A stretch of 64,000 bases of DNA from an uncultured Nitrososphaerales archaeon. GTDB taxonomy: Archaea > Thermoproteota > Nitrososphaeria > Nitrososphaerales > Nitrososphaeraceae. The stretch spans positions 704,001-768,000 of the forward strand of contig CAVQMO010000010.1 in the NCBI GenBank assembly GCA_963713605.1, written 5' to 3'. How positions within the stretch are numbered: position 1 is the first letter of the stretch; each line of letters starts with the position of its first letter. The notes beneath the pieces were generated by a model. That model did no database searches. It saw only the letters and a program-made list of their open reading frames with translations, and was not told the origin of the DNA. Positions 5,544-35,429 of the stretch are shown here, piece after piece. The translations under genes and the position numbers were made by a program.

Positions 5544-5804
5544 CTATTTATTCATCCTTAGGACATCTACTTGTCCACTGTGTAGCCAGTCCTTTAGCTC
5601 TTCGTGACTTGGCTTTGCGTCGTGTTTTCCTGCCAGATGGAGGTGCAGTAGTACATAATTAACCTGATTTAACAATGGTTTGTTATTTTCATCCCCTTTT
5701 CTAGTCTTTGTCTTCAAATCGGCCGGAACAGTGGCCCACCATTCCTCATAGGTCCTCTTTGCTCCACTCTTAGGTTGTTGACCAAATCCTTTTGGTAATG
5801 TCAT
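5544..5804 (-). CDS. Small soluble hypothetical protein beginning MTLPKGFG (motif shared with AmoX)
   Basis: 86-aa ORF with ATG start, TATA-like CTTAAAAAG about 30 nt upstream and T-rich tract downstream. Confidence 0.8.
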   Translation of the reverse strand: MTLPKGFGQQPKSGAKRTYEEWWATVPADLKTKTRKGDENNKPLLNQVNYVLLHLHLAGKHDAKPSHEELKDWLHSGQVDVLRMNK

Positions 5805-5996
5805 ATTGTGAATAATAATAAATCCTGGCTTTTTAAGCGTTTATGTCTGAACAGTAACTATGAATGGTATGAAATCACCCTTATTGGATTCAAAATCTGA
5901 TCACACCTCCACGCCAGGTAAGCTGCAATTGTCCTTCTACCCTAAAACGCTCGTGATACTTTTGGACCTCTCGGAAAAAAAATTATTCCAAACAAT

Positions 5997-6224
5997 CTAA
6001 TCCGACGTAACGAATTTTTTTGAGATCCGGTAACTTACTCCCATTCCAATAAAGAGAGTCAATAAACCAAGTGACGCTGTAATTAGTAAGTCTGCCTTAA
6101 CATAATAGTGCATCAAAAAAGTCACGAGTATTGCTGGGACTGCCATAATTAGTGCAATTAGGCTGCTTACTCCGAACAATCTTGTCTTGCTTAATGGAGT
6201 AGATTCATCATTCCCCCCTTTCAT
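5997..6224 (-). CDS. Small two-TM membrane protein
   Basis: Two hydrophobic segments followed by a basic tail; similar to 6474-6731. Confidence 0.7.
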   Translation of the reverse strand: MKGGNDESTPLSKTRLFGVSSLIALIMAVPAILVTFLMHYYVKADLLITASLGLLTLFIGMGVSYRISKKFVTSD

Positions 6225-6473
6225 TATCTACAAATTCCTTCCTGCCCTTACCTGAGGATGAACATGTATTTGTTCATATCCATTAGTAGCCTGGATGTGT
6301 AAAGTCGAATACTACAATCTTTCTGATTGAAAAAAAAGGCTTTTGCTGCTAAATTGTCCTCACGCATATACCATCCATATTATTTTCTTAAACAAACTGA
6401 TGATGAAGCTGAAATAATTCTACGACCAATATTTATATTTCTTGGTTAAGTGAGAAATTATGATAAAAATTAT

Positions 6474-6731
6474 ATGCATTCCCCGCCCTCGAGGATTGTC
6501 TTTTCCTATAAGAATAGCAAGGTTATCTCCCCCGACGATTTAATAAAGTCGTTTTGGCTAAGCACGGCGATGGCCTTAGTTCTAGTTCTACCACCGCTAG
6601 CAATTTTTGTCGGGATAAACCACAACACGGAGGATATCCTCACTGCCTCACTCATAGGATTTGGAGTCCACTTTGTGATCCTAGCTTTCTCTGTTAGAAT
6701 TTGCTCACAGTTAGAGAGACTATTCAAGTAA
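6474..6731 (+). CDS. Small two-TM membrane protein
   Basis: Two hydrophobic segments; resembles 5997-6224; start uncertain. Confidence 0.65.
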   Translation: MHSPPSRIVFSYKNSKVISPDDLIKSFWLSTAMALVLVLPPLAIFVGINHNTEDILTASLIGFGVHFVILAFSVRICSQLERLFK

Positions 6732-6879: not shown

Positions 6880-7934
6880 ATGAGTTCTACTGTGAGTATG
6901 CCAAGTAAGATCTTTGGCACAGTGCTATCCCATGGATTAAGAGGACGCATGTTGTCTAAGAATGAGCTTCATACACTAGCCGAATCAAGGGATATAGATG
7001 AACTCGTTACAAGAATGAAGAACACCGTATATCTTGATGCACTAGCTAAGTTACCGAAGCCTTATACAGCAGAGAAAGCGGAGAGCGCACTTCGCGAGTA
7101 CCTCGTCAATGTCCATGCCAAGTTGGTAAATATCTCGGGGGGCTCAGGGATACTGTACACGTGTACTTTACAAAGTATATCACTTGGAATCTTAAATTGA
7201 TTTTAAAAGGAAAGGCCTTGGGCAAGTCATACGAGGAGCTCTTACCAAAAATTAATCTCCGAGCGGAAGAGTTAGTAGGGAGGCGAGATTTGATAGTAAA
7301 AGCATTAGTTGCCCAAGACTTTGACGAAGCAGTCTCTGTCCTGTCAGGTAGTGAATTCTTTGAACAGGCATCCAAAGCAGCTGCAGCTTATAAGGAGAAA
7401 AGGGACCTGAGGCTATTTGATATCTACCTAGACCATGTCTTCTACAAGACGCTCGATAAAGCCATGAAATCTGAGACACAGGATCCAGACATAAAGAGGG
7501 TGGTCTCAGTTGATATAGATTCGTATAACGTTTTAGCGGTGCTTAGAGGTAAGTATTGGAATTTGAGCCCTGCAGACATAAATGATTTAATTGTGACTAC
7601 TACTCCAAAGGTCACCAGAGAGACCCTACAAAAGCTCATGAACGCCGAAAAGATATCAGAGGCAGCTTCAGAGTTAGGGGATACAGTTTATAGGGAAATC
7701 ATTCCTCAGAACGTATCCGACGACATAGATATCATTATGCAATTAGAGGCAGGCTTTGAAGGGATAGGTTTGAAACGTGTTTTTAGTGCCTTTAGATCGG
7801 TTTTCAGCGTTGCCATCATGCTTGCAGCATTAAAGCTCATAATGATCGAAATAAGGAATCTTTCAGCGATTATTTCAGGTGTAGAGCAGAAAGTGTCCCA
7901 TGATCTTAATAGTCTCTCGACTTGTGACTCCTGA
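6880..7934 (+). CDS. atpC: A-type ATP synthase subunit C (indel at about 7155, 3' end uncertain)
   Basis: RGRMLSKNELHTL, NLKLILKGK, YLDHVFY, IDSYNV and EIRNLSAI motifs across ORFs 6880-7200 and 7161-7934. Confidence 0.88.
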
Positions 7935-27352: not shown

Positions 27353-28805
27353 ATGAACCCACGAAATAGGCTAGATGATGATCTCAAGTCTATTTCAGAT
27401 ATTATTGGGGACCTCGTAAGAAAAGAGGGTAAGTTCCTTATTCTATCGAGCCCATCCCCAGATGGAATAGCAGCAAGTAGTATAGTCTTCCAAACTCTTG
27501 CAAGATTAAACGCCAAATGCATATTGAGAAGCACTTCGAGTATAACAGATTCTTTACATATTGGAAACTCAGTTTCCAATGAATATGATTTATGCTTGCT
27601 GTTAGATTTCGAACATGAGTCAGTCGAAAAGCTTGACAAGAGCCTTCAAAACAAGTGGTTGCTGATCAGGCACCTATCAGATGAGATAGTTCCCGAAGCT
27701 AACAAAGCATATGACCAACGCGTTCTGAACATTAATAGGTACGAGCTCAATGGCTGGTCAGAAATAACCACTGCAGGGATATGCTATCTATTGTCGATAG
27801 CATTAGACACTAAAAATACAGATCTTTCTGTGCTGGCTGTACTTTCTTCGCTTGGCGAGAGACAGGATTGTGGAGAAGGTAGGTCACTTTTGGGAATAAA
27901 CGCTGAAATAGCCAAGGTTGGTGAATCCCAAGGTCTGCTGCAAAGCCAACCAGACGACCTTCTCATAGTAGGACACGAATGGAGGCCAATACACGAAGCA
28001 ATCGCTTTGACTCGTTTTCCATACATTGAAGGATTAACATGGAATTTAGAGAGGGCTAGGTCAATAGTGGAAAATTCTGGGATCAAGTTGAAGGAAAATG
28101 GGAAATGGCGAGTCTTCACCGATCTTCTGGATCAAGAGAAATGGTCAATCTATGAAGGGATTGCAAAATTCGTTGCCACTAATTCTGGCGCAGAGGTATA
28201 TTCCTTTAGAAGGTATACGTGGGATCAGCTACACCTTACTTAAGGAAGACAGGGGAACTCCACTTCGTGACGCGAGAGAGTATTCAGATCTCCTCAGAAT
28301 TTGCGGTAAAGCGCAAAAATCGGGAGTAGCAATATCAGTATGCCTTGGTGACCGCTTCAAGATGCTGGAAAAAGCTGAAGAAACAGTCGATCGTTATCTT
28401 GACATTCAGAGAAGATCTTTAAGCACTATATTCGCAGAGAAATGGAGGATTTGGGTTGACAGAGACATGGTCTTCATGAACGGGGAAGGGGCGGTGGCAG
28501 AGAATTCCCTCGAGGATATCATGACTCTTCTTGAATCCTCCCCACAATTCTTGCGCAAGATCATTGTTGGCAGGACGGTTACACAAACAGGTGCATACAA
28601 GTATTGTTGTCGAGTCAGTGACTTGCCTAAATTCACAGAGTTGGCATCAGCGATACGGAAATGTTATGGCGTTTCTAATGTATTACCCCATCCATTTGAG
28701 CCCTATGTGCTGTGTTGCGAAGTCCTTCCTAGCGATTTAGAAAACTTTGTCTCATGTTTGAAGGCTGCACCCAGGACCAGTGAATATGCAAGAGCCTCTC
28801 GTTGA
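27353..28805 (+). CDS. RecJ/DHH-family protein with degenerate motifs (indel at about 28195)
   Basis: DGIAASSI, GWSEITTAG, LGERQD, PYIEGLT and LRDAREY; located after rps15. Confidence 0.8.
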
Positions 28806-30410: not shown

Positions 30411-30965
30411 CTAGATCACTTGCCACGGTCTCGTTGCAAATGTTACGCCTAAGCCTGCTCCTATCACCATTACTTGATATATCACATTCGTCCATGGAAC
30501 CGGTTTGAATATCGGTTCGCCTGTCACTTGAACGGTTTGTCCTGGACCAAGTCCTGGGCCAATGGTCTGAATATTGAGCTGTGTATGGACATGATAAATA
30601 CCTGGTTCCAACGCTCTGACGGTTAGTGAGTATGGAATTGTTGCTTCTGGTTCGATGTCAAAGACGTTGCCGGGTGGATCACGAGCTATGAACTCCCATC
30701 TGTTGCCTGCATTTGTTGATTCACTGAAAAGCGACAACCACGCTCTAAGTGGTCTGTTCACCAAGCTCTGTAGTGTACCAGTTACCGTTAGCTCATCACC
30801 AGTCTGAATTGTCTGACCAGAAAAAGATTCATCTTGAATTCTCACAAACCTACTCTGGAGTTGGGCCTGAACACCATGTCCCTCTACAGAAGGCATAAAT
30901 GCGAATGCACTAGACATTACTAATACCGCAGCCAATCCTGTCAAGACTATAGCCTTGTTAATCAT
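30411..30965 (-). CDS. amoB: Archaeal ammonia monooxygenase subunit B
   Basis: Signal peptide then HGVQAQLQSRFV, NAGNRWE, YHVHTQLN and TFATRPWQVI. Confidence 0.97.
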   Translation of the reverse strand: MINKAIVLTGLAAVLVMSSAFAFMPSVEGHGVQAQLQSRFVRIQDESFSGQTIQTGDELTVTGTLQSLVNRPLRAWLSLFSESTNAGNRWEFIARDPPGNVFDIEPEATIPYSLTVRALEPGIYHVHTQLNIQTIGPGLGPGQTVQVTGEPIFKPVPWTNVIYQVMVIGAGLGVTFATRPWQVI

Positions 30966-31206
30966 TTGTAGTTTCTAAGCGATACCAGAAGAAACAAAGA
31001 TATATATTTTGCTGTAACCGATGAGCCAACTTAAGGCTCCTGCTTGAAGTAATCCTTAGTTTTTGATAAAGTCCTCAAAATGGATTCATAATTGCTTAAG
31101 CAATCCCTTTCAATGTAACTGATCCGGAATGTGGGATCTATTTCCGCAACCCGTATTAGTAACAGCAAAATTTAAAAAGGAAAGGACTCATCAAATATTG
31201 TATAAG

Positions 31207-31506
31207 ATGACATTACCAAAGGGATTCGGACCTGGTGGAAGACGAGTTGAAGGTGGCGGTAGTAGGGACGACATAGAAAAGATGATTGGGCGCAGAGTCG
31301 AAAATATGAAAGGTATCTTAGTTCTAGGCCTTGCATTGTGCTGGGCTGCAACAGCTGGTGGTGTTTACGTAGGCGTAACTGTTTATCCTTGGGCCTATCC
31401 CTTGCCAAGTGGAATATATGCCCTATCTGTGCTTACTGTTATCGAAGCTCTAGGCTTCTTCTGGATGTGGAAGATCTCAACAGAAAAACCTCTACGTCCG
31501 TACTGA
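31207..31506 (+). CDS. amoX: Ammonia monooxygenase subunit X
   Basis: MIGRRVENM, YPWAYP and two TM helices; immediately upstream of amoA. Confidence 0.9.
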   Translation: MTLPKGFGPGGRRVEGGGSRDDIEKMIGRRVENMKGILVLGLALCWAATAGGVYVGVTVYPWAYPLPSGIYALSVLTVIEALGFFWMWKISTEKPLRPY

Positions 31507-31622: not shown

Positions 31623-32273
31623 ATGGTCTGGCTAAGACGTACAACGCATTATCTGTTCATAGTTGTCGTAGCTGTTAACAGCACGCTGCTGACTATTAAT
31701 GCAGGAGACTACATATTCTACACTGATTGGGCTTGGACTTCATTCGTCGTGTTCTCCATAGCGCAATCAACGATGCTTGTTGTAGGTGCCATCTATTACA
31801 TGTTGTTTACGGGAGTGCCAGGGACTGCGACCTACTACGCCACTATAATGACGATTTATACTTGGGTTGCGAAAGGGGCTTGGTTTGCTCTTGGATATCC
31901 ATACGACTTCGTTACGGTACCGGTGTGGATACCATCTGCAATGTTGCTGGACCTGTCTTACTGGGCAACAAGAAGGAACAAACACGCGGCGATACTAATA
32001 GGGGGAACATTGGTTGGACTTTCAATACCAATGTTTAACATGATCAACCTATTGACCATACGCGATCCGCTAGAAATGGCATTCAAGTATCCTAGGCCAA
32101 CACTGCCTCCATACATGACACCAATCGAACCACAGGTCGGTAAATTCTATAATAGTCCAGTGGCCTTAGGAGCTGGCGCGGGAGCCGTGCTATCTGTGCC
32201 AATAGCGGCTTTGGGTGCAAAACTCAATACGTGGACTTACAGATGGATGGCCGCTTGGAGTAAGTGGGACTAA
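31623..32273 (+). CDS. amoA: Archaeal ammonia monooxygenase subunit A
   Basis: MVWLRRTTHYLFIVVVAVNSTLLTINAGDYIFYTDWAW...WTYRWMAAWSKWD. Confidence 0.99.
   Translation: MVWLRRTTHYLFIVVVAVNSTLLTINAGDYIFYTDWAWTSFVVFSIAQSTMLVVGAIYYMLFTGVPGTATYYATIMTIYTWVAKGAWFALGYPYDFVTVPVWIPSAMLLDLSYWATRRNKHAAILIGGTLVGLSIPMFNMINLLTIRDPLEMAFKYPRPTLPPYMTPIEPQVGKFYNSPVALGAGAGAVLSVPIAALGAKLNTWTYRWMAAWSKWD

Positions 32274-32469: not shown

Positions 32470-35429
<2,960 letters not shown>

Follow-up and report, generated by a model that had tools for sequence, protein, structure and literature searches.

An N-terminal peptide shared by AmoX and a small soluble protein typical of ammonia-oxidizing archaea may be a portable docking motif

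A soluble protein of 86 aa, encoded on the minus strand at 5544..5804 of the window (the whole 64,000-nt stretch of DNA analyzed here), shares its first seven or eight residues and an adjoining flexible linker with AmoX, an accessory subunit of the archaeal ammonia monooxygenase (AMO) also known as orf38 and named AmoD in 10.64898/2026.08.31.748207. Judged from its conservation across genomes, this N-terminal tag is real and selected, and in soil ammonia oxidizers it is carried by AmoX as well as by two or more protein groups unrelated to it. Quite possibly, if still short of probably, it is a portable docking motif read by a receptor at the cytoplasmic base of AMO. The tag bears on how archaeal AMO is regulated and wired to the cytoplasm, and the first structure of the enzyme includes a cytoplasmic component to which no gene is assigned. 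Through the tag, several proteins of soil nitrifiers become candidates for a place close to AMO. The soluble carrier described here belongs to a family of about 70 aa that is present in nearly all ammonia oxidizers searched and is tied to a major ferredoxin; no family model covers it, and the literature searched does not mention it.

Within the 86-aa gene, codons 1 to 8 encode the tag (5781..5804, minus strand), whose conserved core is residues 1 to 7. A variable polar linker follows at residues 9 to 16 (5757..5780, minus strand), and residues 17 to 86 (5547..5756, minus strand) form a conserved four-helix core that corresponds to the entire untagged form of the protein. A TATA-like box lies 25 to 32 nt upstream of the ATG (5829..5836, minus strand), and the start is presumably leaderless. 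The product had been described as soluble and His-containing, and it has a maximal 19-residue hydropathy of 0.30, five His and no Cys. The amoX gene (31207..31506, plus strand) is 25.4 kb from this tagged copy, the neighborhood of which varies between genomes, and encodes 99 aa counted from the second Met; its tag (31207..31230, plus strand) precedes a Gly-rich linker, and a TATA-like box is found at 31172..31179 (plus strand). It was identified by its length of about 100 aa, by two hydrophobic segments, which agree with the two transmembrane helices claimed for it, and by its position between the divergent amoB (30411..30965, minus strand; PF04744, E 8.7e-11) and amoA (31623..32273, plus strand; PF12942, E 8.7e-117), directly 5' of the latter. 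Orthologues of AmoX in family f1, which is Nitrososphaeraceae by its named relatives, carry the N-terminal peptide published for N. viennensis AmoX in PMC10030591. The two amoC genes of this genome (L201 and L202, 1411-1971, minus strand) encode identical 187-aa products.

Both reading frames begin MTLPKGFG with the DNA that the earlier note had quoted. A 23-nt pattern matched at two places in the window, whereas 100 shuffles gave no match even with three mismatches allowed, and LPKGFG occurs only twice in the six frames of the 4.09-Mb genome. Beyond residue 8 the two proteins have no similarity, as had been stated; AmoX is membrane bound and linked to amoA, whereas the other protein is soluble, and it is a ferredoxin gene that adjoins its ancestral copy. 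The 204 hits of the small-protein family comprised 136 tagged, 66 untagged and 2 unclassified copies. Among 89 distinct tagged, or long, genes, T2 and K5 were each kept in 88, an aromatic residue or His at position 7 in 88, and G8 in 86; columns P4 and G6 are fixed by construction because the filter demanded both residues, and the ranking of loci followed their similarity to the query. Four Pro codons and four Gly codons are used at the tag of these genes, positions 9 to 15 vary freely, and the linker is 7 or 8 residues long in all 89. The same protein-level pattern was seen in 72 AmoX genes of f1 and 17 of f2, with linkers of 7 to 36 residues (amo gene order and AmoX length suggest that f2 is Nitrosopumilaceae and f3 Nitrosocaldaceae). 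These alignments indicate that the tag is conserved at the protein level, with the consensus M-T-[LMYF]-P-K-G-[FYH] ahead of a flexible linker. Identity over all eight residues, which the earlier note had emphasized, held in part: the shared motif is seven residues with variants, and the exact match is partly luck of lineage because position 7 agrees in only 14 of the 29 genomes with both genes, so that the tag variants of the two genes do not co-vary. The proposal of a selected N-terminal tag was upheld, since orthologues retain it despite variation at synonymous sites and since it also heads other proteins with no relation to these two. A conserved short stretch at a disordered terminus that recurs on unrelated proteins is what is expected of a short linear motif.

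A shared start of this kind might also be chance, or a functionless relic left when the promoter and start of amoX were duplicated, and the preferred codons that the two tags have in common are consistent with such an origin. A similar promoter and a duplicated promoter-plus-leader module had in fact been suggested, but neither was borne out. The promoters resemble each other in the TATA box only, and to no greater degree than TATA promoters in general: between 31 and 110 of 462 other TATA-bearing candidate genes score as well, a range that depends on the length and direction of comparison, and the 22- to 25-nt spacers of the two promoters score below most of the comparison set. Synonymous sites of the tag match amoX of the same genome no better than those of other genera (2.00 versus 1.98 of 4), and nothing in them suggests that the two tags still exchange DNA. 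Furthermore, free divergence is seen in the adjacent linker but not in the tag. One observation leans the other way: the promoter of the untagged copy (G000:C1 upstream of 99732; L303-L310, L321) contains CCAAAAGG 43 nt before the core, near the 39 nt at which the PKG codons of the tagged copy are placed, and this match may represent a microhomology join formed by recombination or a captured promoter. We give a relic or chance very little credence and regard it as largely refuted, but it may still describe how the tag originated.

The eight codons could instead act on the translation of leaderless mRNA, at initiation or early elongation, and have been reused to raise expression. In favor of this, all carriers start about 25 to 35 nt past a TATA-like box, and amoX ranks with the most highly expressed genes (log2 TPM 12.1). 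It is the amino acids that are fixed, however, while the codons vary, and a 5-bp hairpin that this copy could form is lost with the common Tyr variant as well as with synonymous variants. An effect of the codons is consequently improbable, and selection on the peptide itself is the reading followed below.

Across 400 genomes of the class, the small protein was found in 321 of 329 genomes of four AmoX-bearing families (80/83 in f1, 227/232 in f2, 10/10 in f3 and 4/4 in f5) and in none of the 71 others. The tally includes six genomes flagged as unpublished (G348, G394, G115, G310, G214 and G266), of which G348 is also among the tag-pattern and the long-gene and AmoX counts; the conclusions are independent of all six. 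AmoX had the same pattern in the tested subset, being absent from all 11 genomes of four of the other families, so the restriction to ammonia oxidizers and the co-occurrence with AmoX that the earlier note had proposed to check were seen. With families judged by AmoX, the 86-aa family is conserved in and limited to ammonia oxidizers, as expected of an AMO subunit. In the marine and thermophilic lineages its linkage is not to the amo cluster; its neighbor there is a 4Fe-4S ferredoxin gene.

The tag itself is more narrowly distributed than its carriers. AmoX bears it at 72 of 77 f1 loci, at all 17 f2 loci and at none of 13 loci in f3 and f5; three of the five f1 loci without it are incomplete and two are second copies (L078 in G227 and L080 in G218), the main amoX being tagged in both of those genomes. 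The small protein is untagged in all 30 genomes of f2, f3 and f5. In nine of nine genomes of genus g6, including the single-contig G167 and G218, the tag pattern matched on AmoX only, and the tagged small protein is accessory and dispensable because it is absent from several complete or near-complete g6 genomes. From this distribution, the simplest order of events would place the tag first on AmoX and later on a duplicate of the small protein in f1.

The protein had been called an orphan. A homologue search found 425 relatives instead (the best 120 of the 425 were read; 100 representatives at 50% identity) and placed it as the tagged paralogue of the 70-aa family. Eight copies or fragments are present in this genome, and only the 86-aa copy has the 16-residue extension. 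The untagged form lies directly before, and on the same strand as, a gene for a 97- to 100-aa two-cluster ferredoxin in 28 of 30 genomes of f2, f3 and f5, the two remaining 3-kb loci ending too soon. An untagged copy has the same position in 27 of the 29 f1 genomes whose copies were fetched and in this genome, where a 72-aa copy directly precedes a 97-aa 4Fe-4S ferredoxin (G000:C1:99732-100366; L323:732-1366). Only 3 of 136 tagged loci have a ferredoxin neighbor. From the loci compared, the untagged copy beside the ferredoxin is the ancestral form and the 86-aa protein a tagged duplicate. The 97-aa ferredoxin is 84 to 100% identical across all four families, and a second ferredoxin copy (C1:256819-257109) has no small-protein neighbor.

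In a published table for N. maritimus, Nmar_1536 is a tRNA transglycosylase, 1537 a ferredoxin and 1539 a beta-lactamase-fold protein; because this gene order matches the f2 loci, it points to Nmar_1538 as the orthologue of the small protein. The ferredoxin following the putative Nmar_1538 is described in PMC12974425 as the most abundant ferredoxin at 32 C. Complex prediction with the 86-aa protein, the G000:C1 ferredoxin and two 4Fe-4S clusters gave a score of 0.01, which carries no weight either way. Literature searches with the motif letters, Nmar_1538, and AmoX with motif terms, which covered few subscription papers, returned no description.

The history of the core differs from that of the tag. 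A tree of core DNA groups copies by lineage and not by tag, and placing all tagged cores in one clade was rejected (35 vs 38 rows, p-AU 1e-27). Tagged and untagged cores are 95% identical in G103, compared with 76 to 85% in six other pairs. We read this as probable gene conversion that involved the core but spared the tag, and repeated gain of the tag is possible. AlphaFold2 predicts four helices over residues 19 to 76 (mean pLDDT 72.9 and 76.5), with residues 7 to 13 at low confidence (below 50). Foldseek at E 0.001 returned no match for the four-helix protein among PDB and viral structures, and the top VIA-align hit, 2nn4 (Z 4.4, rmsd 2.8, 58 aligned), was tied with unrelated rows, a weak match that says nothing on fold novelty. 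Neither the 86-aa protein nor AmoX retrieved anything in a PDB sequence search or scored over the cut-off of any Pfam or NCBIfam model. In the ESM Atlas at 0.8 the long form matched nothing and the marine form matched unnamed Nitrososphaerota clusters only; on viral contigs the marine form had no relative. The four-helix core is also found at the C terminus of a 701-aa membrane protein (P0167, residues 632-697) and after a rhodanese domain in P0201 (residues 233-294), and one genome, G410 (contamination 5%), has six or more copies of the small protein in tagged form (L165-L170).

Further carriers came to light with a looser tag pattern, which gave 125 matches in 61 f1 genomes versus 6 for the reversed control; the stricter first pattern, with one other carrier, a hydrophobic protein of 55 aa, among 40 fetched hits, had missed most of them. 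Eighteen new hits of the looser pattern were fetched, of which 16, from 15 genomes, head frames of 104 to 422 aa and the other two head frames of 11 and 27 aa. The rest of the 125 matches lie on AmoX or on tagged copies of the small protein wherever coordinates were checked, which was not in all cases. Seven of the 16 unrelated carriers have charged helical repeats and a C-terminal helix, seven combine a helical domain with an extended disordered region (three with DUF2795), and two are others. A Pfam scan of nine carriers found DUF2795 over the cut-off in three and Phasin_2 below it in one (E 0.089). Because the carrier groups are weakly alike near the N terminus, we count them as between one and three additional events. 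Members of the helical-domain family were found in 42 of 50 f1 genomes, and the family repeats the pattern of the small protein, in which one paralogue is tagged; in this genome it is untagged at 13 of 13 loci.

Several minor observations accompany these carriers. The expanded helical family of this genome (13 loci on G000 C1, C2, C3, C10, C12 and C13) has products of about 150 to 230 aa, has no Pfam match and is nearly confined to f1. A tagged 55-aa protein with one hydrophobic segment is encoded at L180:193-357 in G349, whose genus mostly lacks the tagged small protein. A candidate third carrier in this genome, G000:C12:42808 (MTYPKGT..., 141 aa), was rejected, as its relatives vary (PKD, PRE, PKE) and have no aromatic residue. 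Viral contigs gave two tag matches, one on a 21-aa frame and one on a 216-aa frame (L326:876-1523, minus strand) in which the Met of the tag may be internal or the true start and is preceded by 29 open codons.

The diversity of carriers bears on what might read the tag. Because it is strictly N-terminal, has a tether of free length and is reused on unrelated proteins, it looks like a docking motif. The use of a single short motif by soluble, linker and membrane proteins that are otherwise unrelated is familiar from the pyrenoid Rubisco-binding motif and from the cargo peptides of encapsulins and microcompartments, to which we claim no sequence likeness; the tag here is strictly N-terminal and, to our knowledge, has no known hub or shell. 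N-degrons and IAP-binding motifs are fixed at the N terminus, with a small residue, then a hydrophobic residue, then Pro, and the tag is likewise N-terminally fixed with this order. The reader could be unrelated to AMO: a protease adaptor acting on an N-degron, an enzyme that modifies N termini, a chaperone that targets proteins to the membrane, or simply the head groups of lipids on the inner face of the membrane, in which case the carriers would have a common fate or location and not a complex. We consider this a serious possibility and nearly as likely as a receptor on AMO. The tag is always at residue 1, which fits a pocket for a free or modified N terminus, the carriers differ widely in structure and several of them have a helical or hydrophobic segment at the C terminus, and all distribution data are accounted for equally well. 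A general signal would be expected to have more substrates, however. Among 73 genomes outside f1, the tag was found on AmoX in 45 of 46 f2 genomes, and the 14 other matches did not exceed the 24 of the control; near-tag starts in an f5 genome (G249:C46:5551-5571, minus strand) and an f2 genome (G219:C1:1367556-1367576, minus strand) are within the chance rate.

Under the docking reading that we tentatively prefer, the tag would be a short linear motif at the extreme N terminus on a flexible tether. It would have originated on AmoX in the common ancestor of f1 and f2 and later, in the soil family f1, have been added to spare copies of the gene for the four-helix protein and of genes for long disordered proteins with a helical or membrane segment at the C-terminal end. 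A single receptor facing the cytoplasm would read it on all carriers. The likeliest site is the base of the AMO trimer on its cytoplasmic side, which is the location of the AmoX tail; docked there next to such a tail, or replacing one, a tagged soluble protein would deliver its own domain to the enzyme. Here that domain would be the four-helix protein genetically tied to a major ferredoxin. The comparisons establish the protein-level conservation of the tag, its position, its tether, its spread over unrelated carriers and its distribution; binding through the tag, the order of events, AMO as the receptor and any role of ferredoxin are inferred. A link between the 86-aa protein and the AMO complex is plausible.

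Published cross-links help to locate the AmoX tail. In Table S11 of PMC10030591, AmoX K13, just behind the tag, cross-links the C termini of AmoC (165-183), AmoY (58, 79) and AmoA (214) and another AmoX K13. It also reaches the S-layer protein, Amt1 and AmoZ 67, and because of these three we regard it as promiscuous. The 110 rows of this table include no cross-link site in AmoX residues 1 to 8, and five peptide motifs of the small-protein family had 0 matches in the sequence-bearing tables of supplement 1 of PMC10030591. The published AlphaFold protomer leaves AmoX 1-21 unplaced (pLDDT 25-35). Further points weigh against a receptor on AMO: the cytoplasmic termini of a small complex all lie close together, AmoX of f3 and f5 does its work untagged, the other tagged carriers have no known tie to ammonia oxidation, the tagged small protein is dispensable, its tag variants do not follow those of AmoX, and its gene stands apart from amoX in a changing neighborhood.

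The site where the AmoX tail cross-links is also that of AmoH of Nitrosopumilus maritimus, a small cytoplasmic component with no assigned gene. In the searched literature, which included few subscription papers, AmoH appears only in the preprint 10.64898/2026.08.31.748207, which describes a loop-rich trimer, modeled as poly-Ala at the cytoplasmic base of AMO, that touches lipids and the C termini of AmoC, AmoY and AmoZ. Together with the cross-links of the AmoX tail, this description makes the base of AMO our best guess for the receptor. The four-helix core could itself be AmoH, with the tag an extra anchor in soil lineages. It is small, soluble and basic, as a cytoplasmic subunit with no gene assigned in that preprint might be, its distribution follows the AmoX families (321/329 genomes versus 0/71), and its paralogous cores are homogenized within lineages, as interchangeable subunits would be. 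AmoH is described as rich in flexible loops, however, whereas the core is predicted to be helical over residues 19 to 76; the four Trp of the marine form should probably be readable in a 2.9-A map; and the conserved linkage is to ferredoxin and not to amo genes. We consider this identity hardly probable. By description, the AmoX tail, Gly-rich with few large side chains, matches AmoH better than the four-helix core does. It is conceivable, although unlikely, that the AmoH density of EMD-66926 (PDB 9XJ2) is wholly or partly three AmoX N-terminal tails at the trimer base, a site that soil archaea would have made into an exchangeable socket for tagged soluble proteins, including the ferredoxin-linked signature protein, that regulate AMO or tether electron carriers or storage bodies to it.

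A bacterial comparison is offered by AmoR of Nitrosococcus oceani, which, in PMC13058606, has about 71 residues, is small, cytoplasmic and helical like the 86-aa family, and is discussed with AMO. It is bacterial and co-transcribed with amoC (PMC13058606), and the likeness is by description only.

Between the 86-aa gene and the gene for ATP synthase subunit C, the window has two small hydrophobic ORFs (5997-6224, minus strand, and 6450-6731, plus strand) with no Pfam or NCBIfam match. The ATP synthase subunit C gene (6880-7934), a DHH-like gene (27353-28805) and an oxidoreductase beta-subunit gene (32530-33436) each appear split over two frames, probably through assembly errors.
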